A stretch of DNA of 64,000 bases from Candidatus Cryptobacteroides sp. (GCA_045597605.1 JAZLKN010000042.1:15504-79503), one strand, 5' to 3'; shown: positions 8,939 through 60,812, counted from the stretch's first letter. Numbers and translations are program-made. Notes: generated by a model not told the origin, from the letters alone.

Positions 8939-9438
8939 TGACAGAAGAGCTGGAAAACAGGATACAGAAGTCCGTAGAGTATTTTATGACCGGTTATGGC
9001 TGCGGCCAGAGTGTTGTTGCCGCCTTCGCTGATTTGTACGGTATGGATGAGGCAACGGCTCTCAAGATCGGTAATGGCTTCGGCGGTGGTGTCGGCAAGA
9101 TGAGGATGATGTGCGGCGCCGTGTCAGGTATGGTTATACTGGCGGGACTGGAGAGCTGCAAGGGTTCAGACGATGGCGCTTCTGACGGCAGTGCCGCAGA
9201 CGGTATCCGGGCAGACAAGGCCCAATGCTATCGTTTGGTTCAGGATCTTCTGGAAGCCTTCAAGCAGGCCAACGGCTCGATAATCTGCGCAGAACTGCTG
9301 GGATTGACCGGAAAACCGGTCGCCGGTGATTTCGTCCCCTCAGAGCGCAACGCACATTACTACAAGACCCGCCCCTGTGCCGCCAAGGTCGAGTCTGCCG
9401 CCCGCATATTCGCCAAATATCTTCAGTCCAGGAATTAA
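8938..9438 (+). CDS. C_GCAxxG_C_C family putative redox protein
   Basis: GYGCGQSV, CGAVSG, SIICAELL and RPCAAKV motifs. Confidence 0.9.
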   Translation: MTEELENRIQKSVEYFMTGYGCGQSVVAAFADLYGMDEATALKIGNGFGGGVGKMRMMCGAVSGMVILAGLESCKGSDDGASDGSAADGIRADKAQCYRLVQDLLEAFKQANGSIICAELLGLTGKPVAGDFVPSERNAHYYKTRPCAAKVESAARIFAKYLQSRN

Positions 9439-9448
9439 TAACCGTTTT

Positions 9449-9524
9449 ATTACGGCAGTACCACCACTTCAGGCGGGCATAACCCATGATCAAAAGCCCC
9501 CTGAAATGGTGGTACTGCCGTAAT
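9449..9524. repeat. Long palindrome, loop-conserved family copy 1
   Basis: Arms 9449-9473 and 9500-9524 (25 bp, 1 mismatch), inner GGGC/GCCC, loop ATAACCCATGATCAAAA. Confidence 0.9.
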
Positions 9525-9536
9525 TATGTGTTTTGC

Positions 9537-9581
9537 GTACTCACTCCCTCACTTCTCCAAGGAAGTAGCCACAACTTCAGG
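9537..9581. repeat. Degenerate REP-like inverted doublet
   Basis: GTACTCACTCC (9537-9547) and GGAAGTAGCCAC (9561-9572) resemble the units at 12099-12209. Confidence 0.6.
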
Positions 9582-9636
9582 AGATTCCGCACAGGAATTA
9601 AACTGTTTTGCCGACTGATTTCGATAAGAGAAGCCA

Positions 9637-10965
9637 TCAATGCCTCATCCGGCGGGCCATCTGCATCATCGCAGCCGGGTTGATTGCCATCTTCATCATC
9701 TTGCGGCTGCTCTCGAACTGCTTGAGAAGCTGATTGACTGCCTGGAGAGACGTTCCTGAACCGTCCGCGATGCGCTTGCGACGGCTGCCGTTGATTATGT
9801 CAGGGTTTTCTCGCTCGTATGGCGTCATTGAAAGAATTATGGCCTCAGTGCTCTTGAAGGCCTTGTCATTATCGATTTCTATGTCCTTGATCGCCTTACC
9901 AACCCCAGGAATCATACCGGCCAAATCCTTTATATTACCCATCTTGCGCACCTGCTGTATCTGATTGTAGAAATCCTGGAGATTGAACTGATCCTTGGCA
10001 ATCTTCTTCTTCATCTCACGGGCCTGTTTCTCGTCAAACTGGGCCTGGGCCTTCTCCACGAGGGAGACGACATCACCCATACCGAGTATTCTGTCGGCCA
10101 TACGTGCCGGATGGAATACATCGAGAGCATCCATTTTCTCTCCAGCGGAAACAAACTTGACAGGTTTTCCCGTAACAGCCTTTATTGACAAGGCGGCGCC
10201 ACCGCGTGTGTCTCCGTCCATTTTTGTCAGAACAACACCCGTAACTGACAATCTCTCATTGAATATTTTTGCTGTTTCTACGGCATCCTGGCCAGTCATC
10301 GCATCAGCAACAAACAGCGTCTCAGTAGGATTTATAGCCTTTGAAAGAGTCTCAATTTCATTCATCAACTCCTCATCAACGCTCAAACGTCCGGCTGTAT
10401 CAACTACGACCACGCTGAATCCGTTTGATTTTGCATAGGTGACGGCGTTCTTTGCTACTTTAACGGGGTCTTTCTCACCTTCCTCACTATAGACGGGAAC
10501 TTCGACACTTTCAGCAAGGACTTTCAACTGATCTATTGCCGCAGGACGGAAGGTGTCACAGGCAGCAAGCACCACCTTCATTCCTTTCTTGCTCTTTATG
10601 TAATTGGCAAGTTTGCTGCTGAGTGTGGTTTTACCGGAACCGTTCAGACCGGCAACCAGAATGATTGCGGGACTGCCTTTCACTTTGAGCTCGCTGGCCT
10701 CGCTTCCCATCAGTGCAGCGAGTTCATCGTGCACAATCTTTATCATCATCTGACCGGGATTAACTGCCGTCAGAACATTGGCTCCCATTGCCTTGGCTTT
10801 TACATCATCGCAGAAACCCTTGGCCACCTTATATGACACGTCGGCATCCAGCAAAGCCCTGCGGACTTCCTTCAAAGTTTCGGCGACGTTGATTTCAGTA
10901 ATCTTTCCCTGGCCCTTCAGTATTTTGAGCGAACGCTCAAGCTTGTCCTGTAAGTTCTCGAACAT
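9637..10965 (-). CDS. ffh: Signal recognition particle protein Ffh
   Basis: MFENLQDKL, GLNGSGKTT, DTAGR, TKMDGDTRGGAALS and M-domain motifs. Confidence 0.98.
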   Translation of the reverse strand: MFENLQDKLERSLKILKGQGKITEINVAETLKEVRRALLDADVSYKVAKGFCDDVKAKAMGANVLTAVNPGQMMIKIVHDELAALMGSEASELKVKGSPAIILVAGLNGSGKTTLSSKLANYIKSKKGMKVVLAACDTFRPAAIDQLKVLAESVEVPVYSEEGEKDPVKVAKNAVTYAKSNGFSVVVVDTAGRLSVDEELMNEIETLSKAINPTETLFVADAMTGQDAVETAKIFNERLSVTGVVLTKMDGDTRGGAALSIKAVTGKPVKFVSAGEKMDALDVFHPARMADRILGMGDVVSLVEKAQAQFDEKQAREMKKKIAKDQFNLQDFYNQIQQVRKMGNIKDLAGMIPGVGKAIKDIEIDNDKAFKSTEAIILSMTPYERENPDIINGSRRKRIADGSGTSLQAVNQLLKQFESSRKMMKMAINPAAMMQMARRMRH

Positions 10966-11190
10966 ATCAATCCGTGTTAAATCCAGTCAAATTTCAAATT
11001 AAGACGCTTCAGCCTTAAATGAAGACGTTCGCAAAGATAGTGTGTTTGTCGGTATAATCAATGAAAACGGTATCGTTTTTCAGAAAAAGTACAGAGTTCA
11101 GGCCAAATGTCATTTTTCGGGGTCTTGAACAGTATTGAATAAACCGCTAAGTTTGCGATTCATAACTGAACCACAAACTGCTTTAGAATT

Positions 11191-12123
11191 ATGAATTACT
11201 TCAATGAAAATGACGATTACGGATGCAATCCTATCCGTTTTTATCACGTATGTACCGATGGGGAGGATAATGGCATTGTGTACACATCTGAAAACGATTA
11301 CAGGCAAGCTGTCACGATAAGCGCAATCTGTGCTTACAAAGCAGATGTCAAAATCGTTTGCTTCTGCCATATGTCAACCCACTCACATTTTGTGATTTGG
11401 AGCGACAGCTACGATAAGGCTGAATGTTTTTCCAATTCATTCAAGCGGGATTATTCAAGGTATTTCGTTCTGAAATATAGGGCAGATCCGGTATATTGCG
11501 GAATTTCGGCAAAACCGATTTTAATTGCTGATCGGTTTTACCTGATGAACTGTATTGCGTATGTACTGAACAACCCGGTTGCCGCAAAGATTACTTCCAG
11601 GGCAGAGGATTACAGGTGGTCATCATTCAATGCATATTTCAACGAATCATCCGACGACAGTGTACCTATCGAACACTTGGGAGTAAGAAATATCCGCAAT
11701 ATTCTTCAAACCAAGACAAAATTGCAAAATTCCGGATTCCGTATCAATACGGACGGCTCGATACATTTAAAGTCGTACATCGATTATGGGATTGTGGAAA
11801 GAATTTATGGTGGCAAGAAAGAATTCTACCGTTCGATGGCGATGACCGACAGCGCCGTCGAAGAGATGAGATATGTTTCGCACGTTGTCCGTTTCACCGA
11901 TACTGAATTGTACGCGGAAGCACTGGAAATAGCACGCCGGAAATACTCCACAAATACCTTGAACCTTCTTACAAAAGAACGGAAGATTGCTCTTGTCATA
12001 CCTTTGCAGCGAAAAACCAAAGCATCTGTCGAAAGGATAGCACGCATTCTCAGAATTAGTCCGAAAGAGGTAAAAAGATATGCAGGATTGATAGAGGATG
12101 TGGCCACTCCTTCAGAAAAGTAA
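11191..12123 (+). mobile_element. HUH/Y1 tyrosine transposase, REP-associated (RAYT/TnpA-REP) type
   Basis: FYHV N-terminal strand, HUH motif CHMSTHSHFVI, catalytic-Tyr motif AYVLNNPVAA, AEDYRWSSF (RAYT-type xEDYxWSS), C-terminal helical extension; about 40-42% GC in sampled lines versus about 50-55% in core genes; own TAAGTTTG promoter; no tnpB nearby. Confidence 0.85.
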
Positions 12124-12209
12124 GGGAGTAGCCACGCAACCGGCCTTATAGCATGTTGTGTTAAGGTGAAGTGTGGCCACTCCATACACAAACCGAGGGA
12201 GTGAGCACA
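12099..12209. repeat. BIME-like array of four alternating inverted REP-like units
   Basis: TGTGGCCACTCC (12099-12110, fwd), GGAGTAGCCAC (12125-12135, rev), GTGTGGCCACTCC (12171-12182, fwd), GGAGTGAGCACA (12198-12209, rev). Confidence 0.85.
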
Positions 12210-12322
12210 TCTGACGAAAGTATCTTTCTTTTTCCGGCAAATATTACTATATTTGTCAGTATTTTACGTGCGAACGTCAGAAAAAATAAGAACTATAAAA
12301 TATAAACTAAAAATATCGCATT

Positions 12323-15300
12323 ATGGCACAAAAGAAATTCATTACCTGCGATGGCAACTGGGCAGCTGCCCACATTGCTTACCTGTTCAGTGAGCATGCT
12401 GCCATCTACCCCATCACCCCTTCATCTACTATGGCTGAAAATGTGGACGAATGGGCTGCCGCAGGTAAAAAGAACCTTTTCGGTGAGGTTGTGAAAGTCA
12501 CCGAGATGCAGAGCGAAGGCGGTGCAGCCGGAGCAGTTCACGGTTCACTTCAGGCCGGTGCTCTCACCACGACCTTCACGGCATCACAGGGACTTCTTCT
12601 GATGATCCCCAATATGTACAAGATTGCCGGTGAACTGCTCCCTACAGTTTTCCACGTATCCGCACGCGCGCTCGCCACACACGCCCTGTCCATCTTCGGT
12701 GACCATCAGGATGTAATGGCCTGCCGTCAGACCGGTTTCGCCTTCCTGGCATCAGCATCCGTACAGGAAGCCCTCGACCTCGCCGCTGTGGCTCATCTGT
12801 CAACCATCAAGAGCAGCATCCCCTTCGTACACTTCTTCGACGGATTCCGCACTTCACACGAGATACAGAAAATCGAGCTCATCGACGAGGACAAGCTGAA
12901 GGAAATGATTTCCGATAAAGCCCTGCAGAACTTCCGCAAGAGAGCATTGAACCCCGATGCGCCCGTTACCCGCGGTACTGCACAGAACGGTGACGTCTAT
13001 TTCCAGAATACCGAGGCCCGCAACAAATACTACAGCGAGGTAGATGATATCGTCGCCCGTTATATGGGTGAGATTTCCGAGCTTACAGGCCGCGACTACC
13101 GTCCTTTCGACTACTACGGCGCACCCGATGCCAAGAAGGTCATCATAGCGATGGGCTCCGTAACGGAGACCGTCAAGGGCGTTGTGGACAAACTCGCAGC
13201 AGAAGGCAAGAAGGTCGGTCTGATGATTGTACGCCTCTACCGTCCTTTCTCTGCTAAGTATTTCTTCAAGGCATTGCCCAAGACTGTCAAGAGAATTGCC
13301 GTCCTGGACCGCTGCAAAGAGCCCGGCGCTCTCGGAGAGCCCCTCTATCTCGACATCAAGGCCCTCTTCCAGGGCGAGGATAAAGCTCCCGTAATAGTAG
13401 GCGGCCGCTACGGTCTGTCCTCAAAGGATACCACTCCTTCACAGATTCTCGCCGTTTATGAGAACCTCGATGCAAAGGAACCCAGGAACAACTTCACCAT
13501 CGGTATCGTGGATGACGTGACTTTCCTGTCACTCCCCCAGAAAGAGGAATTTTCAATCGTTAAGGAAGGCACGACAGAATGCCGTTTCTACGGTCTGGGT
13601 TCAGACGGTACGGTAGGCGCCAACAAGAACACCATCAAGATCATCGGTGACAACACCACACTTTATGCACAGGGTTATTTCGATTACGACTCCAAGAAGT
13701 CAGGCGGATACACCTGCAGCCATCTTCGTTTCGGCAAAGAACCCATCAAGGCTCCTTACCTTGTAAGCACTCCCGACTTTGTGGCCTGCCACGTGCCCTC
13801 ATACCTCAGCAAATATGACGTTCTCGAAGGTATCAAGGAGAACGGTACCCTGCTTCTGAACAGCCTCTGGGACGAAGAAGAGACGCTCAAGCGTATTCCC
13901 GACCACGTAAAGGGCATCATCGGCCGCAAGAACATCAAGCTCTACGTCATCAACGCAACCAAGATTGCAGCTGAGATTGGTCTGGGCGGACGCACCAACA
14001 CCATACTCCAGAGTGCATTCTTCAAGATTACCGGCATAATTCCCTACGAGGAGGCCGTGGGTCATATGAAGCACGCCATCGACAAGAGCTACGGCAAGAA
14101 GGGTGAGAATGTCGTGAAGATGAACTACGCGGCCGTTGACCGCGGCGGAGAGTATATCGAGGTAGCCGTTCCCGCAGAATGGAAGGAAATCACTGCCAAG
14201 TTCGAGATTCCCGGCAAGGAGCGTATGGCTCCCACATTCGTCAAGGAGATTGCCGATGTCTGCAACTCACAGAACGGTAACAAACTGCCCGTCAGCGTAT
14301 TCACAGTGGACGGCACAATGCCTGCCGGTACTGCAGCATACGAGAAACGCGGAATCGCCGTCAAGGTTCCCGCCTGGGACTCTGAGAAATGTATCCAGTG
14401 CAACACCTGCGCCATCGTCTGCCCTCACGCCGTCATACGTCCTTTCCTTCTGAGCGAAGAGCATGCCGCCAAGGCTCCCAAGACCATTATGCTCCTTCCC
14501 GTCAAGGGCGCTCCCGCAGGAAGCGATGCAAAATACTACACTCTCGCCTTCTCCAATGCTGACTGTACCGGTTGCGGCAACTGCGTGGATTACTGCCTCG
14601 CAAAGGAGAAAGCCCTGTCAATGGTTCCCTACGATTCAGAGGACGACAAGGCTCAGAAAGAATACGATTATCTCGACAAGAAAGTCGGCTACACTGCAAT
14701 AGAGGCTGCAAAGGCCAATATGAAGACCTCACAGTTCAACCAGCCCTACTTCGAATTCAGCGGAGCCTGCGCAGGTTGCGGCGAGACTCCTTATATCAAG
14801 GCCATCACCCAGCTCTTCGGTGACAGGATGATGATTTCCAACGCCACAGGATGTTCATCCATCTACGGCGCATCCTATCCCGCATCACCCTACTGCACAA
14901 ATGCAGAAGGTCACGGCCCCGCCTGGCAGAACTCTCTCTTCGAGGATTTCTGCGAATTCGGTCTGGGTATGCACGTAGGTTCAGACCGTGCACGTCAGAC
15001 AGTAGCCAGACTGATGACGCAGGGTCTGGAGTGCGACTGCTGCGGTGACGAAATCAAAGCCCTGTTCAAGCAGTGGCTCGACGCTCCCCAGAATGCGGCT
15101 TCAACCCGTGAGGTTGCCGACAAGCTCGTTCCCCTTATGAAAGAATGCGGCTGCGACATCTGCAGGCAGCTTCTCGACTACGAGCATTTCATTCCTTCAC
15201 GCAGCCAGTGGATTATCGGCGGTGACGGTGCCAGCTATGACATCGGTTACGGCGGACTCGACCACGTACTGGCCAGCGGCGAAAACGTGAACATCCTGGT

Positions 15301-15847
15301 TCTCGACACCGAGGTTTACTCCAACACAGGCGGACAGAGCAGCAAATCGACGCCTGCCGGCGCTATCGCCAAGTTCGCAGCTTCAGGCAAGAAGGTACGC
15401 AAGAAAGACCTTGGAATGATGGCTATGAGCTACGGATACGTCTATGTCGCACAGGTTGCAATGGGAGCATCACAGGTTCAGTTCATCAATGCAATCAAGG
15501 AAGCCGAGGCTTATGACGGTCCTTCAATCATCATAGCCTATGCGCCTTGCATCAACCACGGTCTGAAAGCCGGTATGGGTCTGAGCCAGCGCGAGGAGAA
15601 ACTCGCCGTAGAGTGCGGCTACTGGCAGCTCTACCGCTACAACCCCGCCCTGATTGAAGAAGGCAAGAATCCTTTCACTCTCGACTCCAAGGAGCCCGAC
15701 TGGAGCAAGTTCCAGGACTTCCTCAAAGGTGAGGTGCGTTTCGCATCCCTCTACAAGATGTTCCCCGGACAGGCAGACGAACTCCTTCAGAAGACTGAGG
15801 AATTCGCCAAGATCCGTCTTGAGAACTACAAACGACTTGCGAAATAA
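12323..15847 (+). CDS. nifJ: Pyruvate:ferredoxin (flavodoxin) oxidoreductase
   Basis: AIYPITPSS, EMQSEGGAAG, two CxxCxxCxxxC ferredoxin motifs, FSGACAGCGE, TPP-binding GGDG..YDIG..LDTEVYSNTGGQ. Confidence 0.98.
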   Translation: MAQKKFITCDGNWAAAHIAYLFSEHAAIYPITPSSTMAENVDEWAAAGKKNLFGEVVKVTEMQSEGGAAGAVHGSLQAGALTTTFTASQGLLLMIPNMYKIAGELLPTVFHVSARALATHALSIFGDHQDVMACRQTGFAFLASASVQEALDLAAVAHLSTIKSSIPFVHFFDGFRTSHEIQKIELIDEDKLKEMISDKALQNFRKRALNPDAPVTRGTAQNGDVYFQNTEARNKYYSEVDDIVARYMGEISELTGRDYRPFDYYGAPDAKKVIIAMGSVTETVKGVVDKLAAEGKKVGLMIVRLYRPFSAKYFFKALPKTVKRIAVLDRCKEPGALGEPLYLDIKALFQGEDKAPVIVGGRYGLSSKDTTPSQILAVYENLDAKEPRNNFTIGIVDDVTFLSLPQKEEFSIVKEGTTECRFYGLGSDGTVGANKNTIKIIGDNTTLYAQGYFDYDSKKSGGYTCSHLRFGKEPIKAPYLVSTPDFVACHVPSYLSKYDVLEGIKENGTLLLNSLWDEEETLKRIPDHVKGIIGRKNIKLYVINATKIAAEIGLGGRTNTILQSAFFKITGIIPYEEAVGHMKHAIDKSYGKKGENVVKMNYAAVDRGGEYIEVAVPAEWKEITAKFEIPGKERMAPTFVKEIADVCNSQNGNKLPVSVFTVDGTMPAGTAAYEKRGIAVKVPAWDSEKCIQCNTCAIVCPHAVIRPFLLSEEHAAKAPKTIMLLPVKGAPAGSDAKYYTLAFSNADCTGCGNCVDYCLAKEKALSMVPYDSEDDKAQKEYDYLDKKVGYTAIEAAKANMKTSQFNQPYFEFSGACAGCGETPYIKAITQLFGDRMMISNATGCSSIYGASYPASPYCTNAEGHGPAWQNSLFEDFCEFGLGMHVGSDRARQTVARLMTQGLECDCCGDEIKALFKQWLDAPQNAASTREVADKLVPLMKECGCDICRQLLDYEHFIPSRSQWIIGGDGASYDIGYGGLDHVLASGENVNILVLDTEVYSNTGGQSSKSTPAGAIAKFAASGKKVRKKDLGMMAMSYGYVYVAQVAMGASQVQFINAIKEAEAYDGPSIIIAYAPCINHGLKAGMGLSQREEKLAVECGYWQLYRYNPALIEEGKNPFTLDSKEPDWSKFQDFLKGEVRFASLYKMFPGQADELLQKTEEFAKIRLENYKRLAK

Positions 15848-20061: not shown

Positions 20062-20078
20062 GCAGCTCCACAAGTGAA

Positions 20079-20110
20079 GAGGCCGGCCAAAATAACTTTT
20101 GGTCGGCCTC
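20079..20110. terminator. Terminator-like hairpin
   Basis: GAGGCCGGCCAAAA-TAAC-TTTTGGTCGGCCTC; core nearly identical to the hairpin at 60818-60845. Confidence 0.7.
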
Positions 20111-20157
20111 CTCGTTTATGCCATATTCCACCGTACAGGCGAATGAACGGATTATCA

Positions 20158-20253
20158 AAACGGGCCATAGCACTTCACGGCACGTTTATCATGGGTTATG
20201 TGCCGTGAAGTGCTATGGCCCGTTTCCTCAATGTCACCGAAGTGGCATAGGCA
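20158..20253. repeat. Long palindrome, loop-conserved family copy 2, plus conserved flank
   Basis: Perfect 26-bp arms 20158-20183 / 20200-20225, loop GTTTATCATGGGTTAT; flank 20226-20253 matches 60732-60759 in reverse complement (24/28). Confidence 0.95.
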
Positions 20254-60731: not shown

Positions 60732-60812
60732 TGCCTGTGCCACTTCGGGGACGTTGAAGAAACGAGGCATAGCACTTCACGACACGTTTTATCATGGGTT
60801 ATGTGCCGTGAA
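60732..60812. repeat. Long palindrome, loop-conserved family copy 3 (right arm truncated)
   Basis: Flank 60732-60759, left arm 60760-60785 (23/26 identical to the 20158 arm), loop GTTTTATCATGGGTTAT, only 10 nt of right arm (GTGCCGTGAA). Confidence 0.9.

Follow-up and report, generated by a model that had tools for sequence, protein, structure and literature searches.

We have found, in Candidatus Cryptobacteroides sp., a RAYT-like gene that is conserved beside ffh and whose last codons run into a double-hairpin repeat, here called family A, with further copies dispersed through the genome. The gene lies in the window, by which we mean the whole 64,000-nt stretch of DNA that was analysed. Its product is probably a domesticated class-2 Y1 HUH enzyme that recognises folded family-A hairpins and spreads the 109-nt family-A units in trans. 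Judged from the sequences, the family-A element is the best explanation of what the cognate DNA of the RAYT-like protein may be. The family to which the protein belongs is large, carries no annotation, occurs mostly in Bacteroidales and has members of about 300 aa.

Positions of the gene, its motifs, its neighbours and the repeats of the window are collected in Table 1. An ORF scan of the window found no interruption across the 310 aa, in agreement with a sequence-only reading of this DNA that had described an intact gene. The HSH, YVLNNP and EDYRWSS motifs picked out by that reading are not chance matches, as their key residues stay conserved when 94 homologs, 21-46% identical to the query, are aligned. 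It had also claimed a -7 promoter box, a GC content lower than that of the neighbours and the absence of tnpB, and each of these was found. TAnnTTTG is the Bacteroidetes -7 promoter consensus, and on the strength of this consensus the box TAAGTTTG is predicted to be the promoter of the RAYT-like gene. GC content is 42.0% in the RAYT-like ORF, compared with 49.4% in ffh, 53.9% in nifJ and 51.0% in the genome. Among the ORFs of the window, none of TnpB size lies between or beside ffh, the RAYT-like gene and nifJ.

Table 1. Features of the RAYT-like locus and palindromic repeats in the window (positions counted from the first nucleotide of the window)
Feature	Position	Strand	Remarks
RAYT-like gene, 310 aa	11191-12123	+	Y1 HUH domain at about residues 15-150 (N-terminal), followed by a helical C-terminal part
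-7 box, TAAGTTTG	11148-11155	+	36 nt upstream of ATG; matches TAnnTTTG
HUH motif, H64-S65-H66	11380-11388	+	Read directly
Catalytic-tyrosine motif, Y124-VLNNP	11560-11577	+	Family consensus YVLRNP
EDYRWSS, the Y-x-W-S-S tail	11605-11625	+	Follows the Y motif
C-terminal HTH-like helical unit	11974-12081	+	About residues 262-297; helices in models
ffh (SRP54)	9637-10965	-	Divergent from the RAYT-like gene, inside the hairpin-bounded block
nifJ	12323-15847	+	Downstream neighbour of the RAYT-like gene in the window
Family-A hairpin 1, GTGGCCACTCC-N13-GGGAGTAGCCAC	12100-12135		36 nt
Family-A doublet spacer	12136-12172		37 nt, conserved; orientation opposite to the post-gene spacer of four relatives
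Family-A hairpin 2, GTGGCCACTCC-N13-GGGAGTGAGCAC	12173-12208		Starts 73 nt downstream of the start of hairpin 1
Single degenerate family-A hairpin	9537-9572		nhmmer E = 6e-4; beyond ffh, at the other border of the ffh+RAYT block
Family-B palindrome, variant	9449-9524		
Family-B palindrome	20157-20225		
Family-B palindrome	60760-60812		

Across the 94 homologs H64, H66, Y124 and N128 are invariant, and H19, Y141, W143, F150, L260 and R285 nearly so. The HUH motif stands in the context THSHF in the query clade as against NH[VFL]HF in most of the family; the other family motifs are YVL[RN]NP and Y-x-W-S-S. These three motifs are class-2 (TnpA-REP) signatures in Quentin et al. 2018 (PMC6006769), where the 'SS' motif belongs to the tail of the class-2 (TnpA-REP type) enzymes. 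The invariance of His, His and Tyr over such divergent proteins indicates that catalysis has been retained, and on this ground we infer that the RAYT-like protein is catalytically active.

Curated models recognised the protein only weakly. The query alone scored E = 0.064 and 13.8 bits (cut-off 23) against Pfam Y1_Tnp, and E = 5.7e-5 and 23 bits (cut-off 80) against NCBIfam REP_Tyr_transpos (NF047646), which places it outside the curated REP_Tyr_transpos equivalog and makes it a member of the wider kind only. When the 94 members were scanned individually, NF047646 matched 84 of them (best 1e-12), all below the curated cut-offs, the IS200 model matched eight, and Pfam Y1_Tnp matched 52. A search of PDB sequences with the single query protein gave no match, and the relationship to 4ER8, E. 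coli TnpA-REP (YafM/RayT) bound to a REP hairpin, emerged only through profiles and fold. The profile of the 94 homologs matched 4ER8 with E = 9e-4 over a stretch that begins in the HUH region and takes in the Y motif and the W-x-S tail, and IS200-type PDB chains with E of about 0.08; in it the Y124 motif falls on the Y motif of 4ER8, and EDYRWSS on its segment W-P-F-S-T. For the AF2 model of the protein (pLDDT 86.4), 4ER8 was likewise the best PDB match in Foldseek (E = 7e-4, probability 1.00, target TM 0.58); below it come the IS608, ISDra2 and IS200 transposases, and Y1 transposase chains dominate these lower ranks. By predicted fold and HMM matches, the protein is thus classed as a Y1 HUH enzyme closer to TnpA-REP/RAYT than to IS200 TnpA. 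The earlier designation as a RAYT/TnpA-REP HUH nuclease holds in so far as fold and HMMs lean to the REP type, and has to be weakened in that the scores lie far below the curated RAYT and Y1 cut-offs.

Close homologs of the RAYT-like protein number 38. At E <= 1e-3 the family comprises 3,656 clusters (50% identity) among 1.84 billion representatives, nearly all of 280-320 aa and aligning end to end. No name for it was found in the databases, where homologs are labelled 'hypothetical protein' at most and the majority carry no label. Much of the length lies beyond the nuclease domain: residues ~155-310 form an additional conserved helical part (~160 aa) with the HTH-like unit at its end. Modelled separately, this part reached pLDDT 75; a fold search with the model gave no significant match, and HTH-type matches were weak only. 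Pfam Bac_DnaA_C, HTH_23 and HTH_28 were found in 0 of the 94 members at E <= 0.01. DnaA domain IV, considered as an identity for the C-terminal part, was supported by neither the fold search nor these Pfam scans.

The genome (G000) is a 1.80-Mb MAG in 65 contigs that is 96% complete, so that about 4% may be absent from the assembly. It holds three members of the family, namely the RAYT-like gene and two paralogs on contigs C43 and C50 that are 21-25% identical to it; a canonical IS200 was not found in the genome. The RAYT-like gene is single copy: near-identical copies occur neither in its own genome nor, for the family, in seven other genomes sampled. Orthologs with 79-86% identity are present on seven related metagenome contigs, the related genomes being known from short contigs only; a JGI metagenome scan returned no relatives. 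On six of the seven contigs ffh lies divergent from the ortholog, and the seventh, L057, starts just 53 nt upstream of the gene. With four genomes compared, dN/dS is 0.10-0.23 for the RAYT-like gene and 0.02-0.06 for ffh, ratios that place the gene under purifying selection. Domestication, as proposed by the sequence-only reading, is supported by a chromosomally fixed place beside ffh together with this constraint. That the gene is inserted between ffh and nifJ stands for one side: the linkage to ffh is conserved, whereas adjacency to nifJ occurs only in the window and L055, the block being reversed in L015, L016, L017 and L057.

Searched against 60 other species of the GTDB genus, the RAYT-like protein finds nothing closer than 32% identity, and the Ffh proteins of other species of the genus are 72-78% identical to that of the window, with different neighbour genes. 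We looked for synteny or an empty site at ffh in ten other members of the genus and in one species from another family of the order; the genes around ffh are entirely different there, and an empty site could therefore not be defined. A fixed place, conservation and a single copy, all inside one narrow clade, give the gene the pattern of a RAYT and not that of an IS.

Several further observations concern sequence divergence at the locus. L055 and the window are 99% identical in the NifJ N-terminus and 95% in Ffh, and just 86% in the RAYT-like protein. Relative to L016, dS is 0.59 for the RAYT-like gene and 0.33 for ffh, and for more distant pairs dS of the gene is lower than that of ffh. Such out-of-step divergence may possibly reflect rapid evolution or inter-lineage exchange. 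At C49:9551-10150 there is a 78% identical counterpart of the nifJ 5' part (window 12300-12897; C42:27803-28400), and the genome thus has a second nifJ-like gene.

The family-A unit consists of 109 nt, in which two 36-nt hairpins (GTGCYCACTCCC-loop-GGGAGTGRGCAC) stand 73 nt apart with a conserved 37-nt spacer between them. Genome-wide there are eight doublets and three single copies, giving 11 loci with 19 hairpins, and the period is 73 nt from start to start in all eight doublets. Four doublets lie less than 800 nt from contig ends (contigs C6, C8, C15 and C47), and one related contig, L056, terminates within hairpin 1; since the MAG is fragmented as well, the family-A count is a lower bound. 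It appears that short-read assemblies break at these repeats. At nine of the 11 loci there is no overlap with a stop-to-stop frame of at least 150 aa, the remaining overlaps being with the 3' end of the RAYT-like gene and with two probably spurious frames in repeat-rich spacers. As single-stranded DNA the units are well folded, with z = -3.3 for the window copy and z = -4.5 for a dispersed copy; the preferred fold is one long nested hairpin for the former versus two separate hairpins for the latter.

At the RAYT-like gene, the left arm and loop of hairpin 1 encode the last seven residues (VATPSEK) and the stop codon. Family-A hairpin sequence occurs at the stop codon of the ortholog on all seven related contigs, including L056 with its incomplete first hairpin. 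On the 5' side the partner hairpin or hairpins lie beyond ffh, in the window as in the relatives, and there is no family-A hairpin directly 5' of the gene. None of the 60 other species of the genus has the family-A unit, and none has an ortholog above 32% identity. Gene and repeat thus co-occur across genomes, a correlation that is confined to one narrow clade and therefore counts as a single evolutionary event.

These data bear on whether the gene is simply the transposase of an IS200/IS605-type IS, stuck in place or newly arrived, with the hairpins as its left and right ends. We regard this as very improbable. The fold is shared with the IS608 and ISDra2 TnpA proteins, the GC content is below that of the neighbours, and in several members of the family (L018, L021 and L022) both flanking hairpins stand in direct orientation, as the ends of an IS200 do. 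Against this, the near-identical copies expected of an IS were found neither in this genome nor in the seven others, the site beside ffh is constant in six related contigs under the dN/dS given above, hairpin units stand without the gene at 10 other loci, the essential ffh would lie between the two 'ends', tnpB is absent, and the HMMs favour the REP type by 84 members to eight.

Hairpins beside the gene are a feature of the wider family. About 30 other members were inspected, in G086, G097, G102, G113, G138, G147, G150 and GCA_045599265 and on the P0011 contig, and bracketed members occur in each of these. In at least 12 members a long hairpin, alike left and right, flanks the gene; its sequence is particular to the member, and several are doublets. 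The P0011 protein (49% identity), for example, is bracketed by GTGCCCACC...GGTGGGCAC doublets. The member-specific hairpins also occur elsewhere in five of seven genomes tested: G086 has at least 15 further hairpin loci, and G102 has doublets 73-74 nt apart at two further loci. For G138 and G147 no hairpins were found in the genome other than those beside the gene. As far as these sequences go, related proteins have related stems, and the hairpin sequence changes along with the protein. Identity is at most 59% between paralogs within a genome and 80-91% between orthologs of different genomes. Together with the member-specific hairpins, these values fit the description of RAYTs as several diverged copies per genome, each with its own REP family (PMC6006769).

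Many of the cognate hairpins start with GTG and end with CAC (GTGCTC...GAGCAC, GTGGAAG...CTTCCAC-like, GTGTTTA...TAAACAC); these ends are perhaps a conserved foot and would then resemble GT[AG]G in classical REPs. Beside the C43 paralog (L002), two hairpins AATCAGTG(C/T)(G/A)TTT...AAACGCACTGATT follow the gene 51 nt apart (C43:500-716), with no copies elsewhere in the genome. At the C50 paralog (L003), with repeats at C50:12735-12790, the direct repeat AGTGCCCGCAGTGGT stands twice after the gene and ATTTCAG..GCGAGCCGGA twice ahead of it. Both paralogs belong to a second subfamily (NHLHF / YINRNG / YPWG), many members of which carry one or two in-frame stops (e.g. G133:C31, G129:C82, G102:C59 and G118:C27) and are probably decaying copies.

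A different function for the protein has to be weighed here. It might have lost its action on the repeats and been exapted as a DNA-binding or regulatory protein by way of its C-terminal HTH-like part, or as a replication or repair protein, and the hairpins would then be terminators or recombination hot spots that were spread by other means. The conserved divergent linkage to ffh, the long conserved C-terminal part with its HTH-like helices, the small number of repeat copies and the doublet at the position expected of a terminator all speak for such a role. We nevertheless think it quite unlikely, since the catalytic His, His and Tyr are invariant in 94 very divergent homologs, and since hairpins that bracket genes and change with the protein are unexpected for ordinary terminators.

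We favour the reading of a domesticated class-2 enzyme with family A as its substrate. The protein would bind family-A hairpins that have folded in single-stranded DNA, as they might at replication forks. The pair of His residues would hold the metal, and Tyr124 would cut and rejoin at the foot of the hairpin. Family-A units would in this way be copied or moved in trans, while the gene itself would stay in place. Against the enzyme-substrate reading stand the low scores with the curated models and the restriction of the gene-repeat correlation to one clade. In addition, the middle residue of the HUH motif is Ser and not hydrophobic, and the 5' partner hairpin lies beyond ffh. Classical REP/REPIN families have tens to hundreds of copies, compared with the 11 loci of family A.

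The sequence-only reading had further proposed that the gene may be the source of the palindromes across the window. This can apply only to the doublet and the single family-A hairpin, whose family is tied to the gene; the long palindromes belong to a separate family, B. Family B measures 70 nt, with a 26-bp stem AAACGAGCCATAGCACTTCACGGCAC and a conserved loop ATAACCCATGA.AAAAC, and has 30 copies in the genome. Rfam, applied to 9300-12400, gave nothing but a spurious, sub-threshold mir-458 match to the palindrome at 9446-9527.

The RAYT-like gene might also, or instead, mobilise the family-B palindromes and so be the source of most palindromes of the window. This is doubtful, although it merits more weight than the two alternatives above. 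Family B is as species-specific as the gene, with no copy in the other 60 species of the genus; at four of the 11 family-A loci a B copy stands less than 150 nt away, and the B variant abuts the family-A hairpin at 9449-9572. Neither the C43 nor the C50 paralog is flanked by B copies. Set against these points, the B and A stems have no clear sequence in common, no B copy touches the RAYT-like gene (or either of the other two family genes), and none was found on the three 5-8 kb contigs tested (L015-L017). Assignment of family B to the gene by elimination of the paralogs was attempted and fails, because for the C43 and C50 paralogs, too, the genus offers no close orthologs (best matches at most 44% and 56% identity); moreover, about 4% of the genome may be absent from the assembly. 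A link between the RAYT-like gene and family B is possible.

Other short repeat families, such as GCAAAAGTACCTATGCCACTTCGGGAAC, CATCCGT.CA.ACGGATG and GTAAACAGCATACGTTT, co-cluster with A and B, for instance at C1:31165-31225, C19:19834-19878 and 20069-20125, and C31:2902-3020. Together with A and B they form intergenic mosaic repeat islands.

Comparison of the related contigs revealed an inversion of the 2.6-kb ffh+RAYT block with both breakpoints within family-A units. The type I arrangement (window and L055) is C_GCAxxG> (hairpin) <ffh RAYT> (doublet) nifJ>, and type II (L015 and L017, with one side each in L016 and L057) is C_GCAxxG> (doublet) <RAYT ffh> (doublet) nifJ>. In type II each doublet is the inverted repeat of the other. 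Type I retains only three hairpins and one spacer, and this spacer has turned round with respect to both the gene and nifJ. As a cause of the block inversion we considered one reciprocal crossover between the inverted doublets, which predicts the type II spacer orientation; the window and L055 have the opposite one, which contradicts that scheme and calls for at least two events. The inversion may have been made either by the enzyme or by ordinary recombination. Breakpoints within repeats on both sides of an ffh block show that family-A elements shape gene order.

Tentatively, and with rather little confidence, we also raise the idea that the enzyme, probably as a dimer, treats the 109-nt double hairpin as one unit and so rearranges a block that contains an essential gene. 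The C-terminal HTH-like part would then read the conserved spacer or fix the 73-nt spacing. Since every arm can pair with every other, an enzyme acting on whole units could flip or exchange DNA between them, which would account for the inverted ffh+RAYT block and for the separately flipped spacer. If true, the repeat system would rearrange an essential-gene block, an effect beyond the copying of small repeats.

To our knowledge, REP/RAYT systems have been studied almost solely in Proteobacteria. If our reading is right, the RAYT logic of a fixed single-copy nuclease gene with its own dispersed palindromes extends to gut or rumen-type Bacteroidales. Naming the family would improve the annotation of many Bacteroidales genomes and explain assembly breaks at the repeats, and one protein with one 36-nt hairpin offers a testable pair for repeat recognition and movement by RAYTs.

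Among known systems, the IS200/IS605 TnpA proteins (IS608, ISDra2) resemble the RAYT-like protein in fold and, by inference here, in chemistry on hairpin-bearing single-stranded DNA. Those elements are multicopy and mobile, often with tnpB, whereas this gene is single copy and fixed, with hairpins dispersed without it; near-identical copies, variable location and tnpB, by which IS200/IS605 elements are known, were not found for it. The likeness to RAYT/TnpA-REP proteins with their REP, BIME or REPIN repeats (E. coli YafM/RayT, Pseudomonas REPIN-RAYT; class 2, PMC6006769) goes further. They share the Y1 HUH fold with a motif of the NH-x-H kind, and in each a single catalytic Tyr lies in Y-x-x-x-N-P ahead of a W-S-S tail. 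Both have a single-copy, vertically inherited gene joined to extragenically dispersed palindromic repeats, and in both families each paralog has its own repeat family and repeats are paired. The differences lie in length (~310 aa with an extra ~160-aa helical part, versus ~150-240 aa in RAYTs), in the H-S-H form of the HUH motif, and in curated models that are missed by a wide margin. The repeats differ in consisting of two complete 36-nt hairpins with a fixed 73-nt period and a conserved spacer, at 11 loci only, and the locus differs in having hairpin 1 within the coding sequence and the 5' partner past an essential gene.

Within class 2, three subclasses were compared by description. In subclass 2.4 (Bertels group 4; Cyanobacteria and Bacteroidetes) the Y motif is YIxNNP, and the REPs have a 'double foot', GT[AG]G at the 5' end and C[TC]AC at the 3' end (PMC6006769). 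YVLNNP fits YIxNNP, the gene-adjacent hairpins GTGG...CCAC have a double foot, and REP sequence is tolerated within the reading frame of the gene in that subclass as well (PMC6006769); however, its members average 194 aa and have no C-terminal extension, unlike this protein, and the dispersed family-A copies start with GTGC and end with GCAC, unlike its feet. Subclass 2.1 (Bertels group 1, including TIRYTs) has C-terminal Bac_DnaA_C, HTH_23 or HTH_28 domains and is reported to lack REPs nearby (PMC6006769). Like our wider family, it has the NHVH-type HUH motif, an SS tail and, at the C-terminus, an extension with an HTH-like end; it differs in that hairpins are the rule here and 0 of 94 members match those three domains. 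Subclass 2.6 (Bertels group 5) is dominated by Bacteroidetes and has flanking 'atypical secondary structures' that recur in the genome (PMC6006769); phylum, SS tail and unusual flanking hairpins with further genomic copies are alike, but its average of 179 aa and its YIH[QN]NP motif contrast with ~300 aa and YVL[RN]NP.

The gene and its repeats are a RAYT/REPIN-like system in fold, motifs, copy number, inheritance and repeat dispersal, with scores that fall short of the curated cut-offs. Relative to published systems, four traits are new: a long form extended by the additional C-terminal part, a repeat unit of two phased hairpins, a hairpin within the reading frame and an essential gene inside a hairpin-bounded block.
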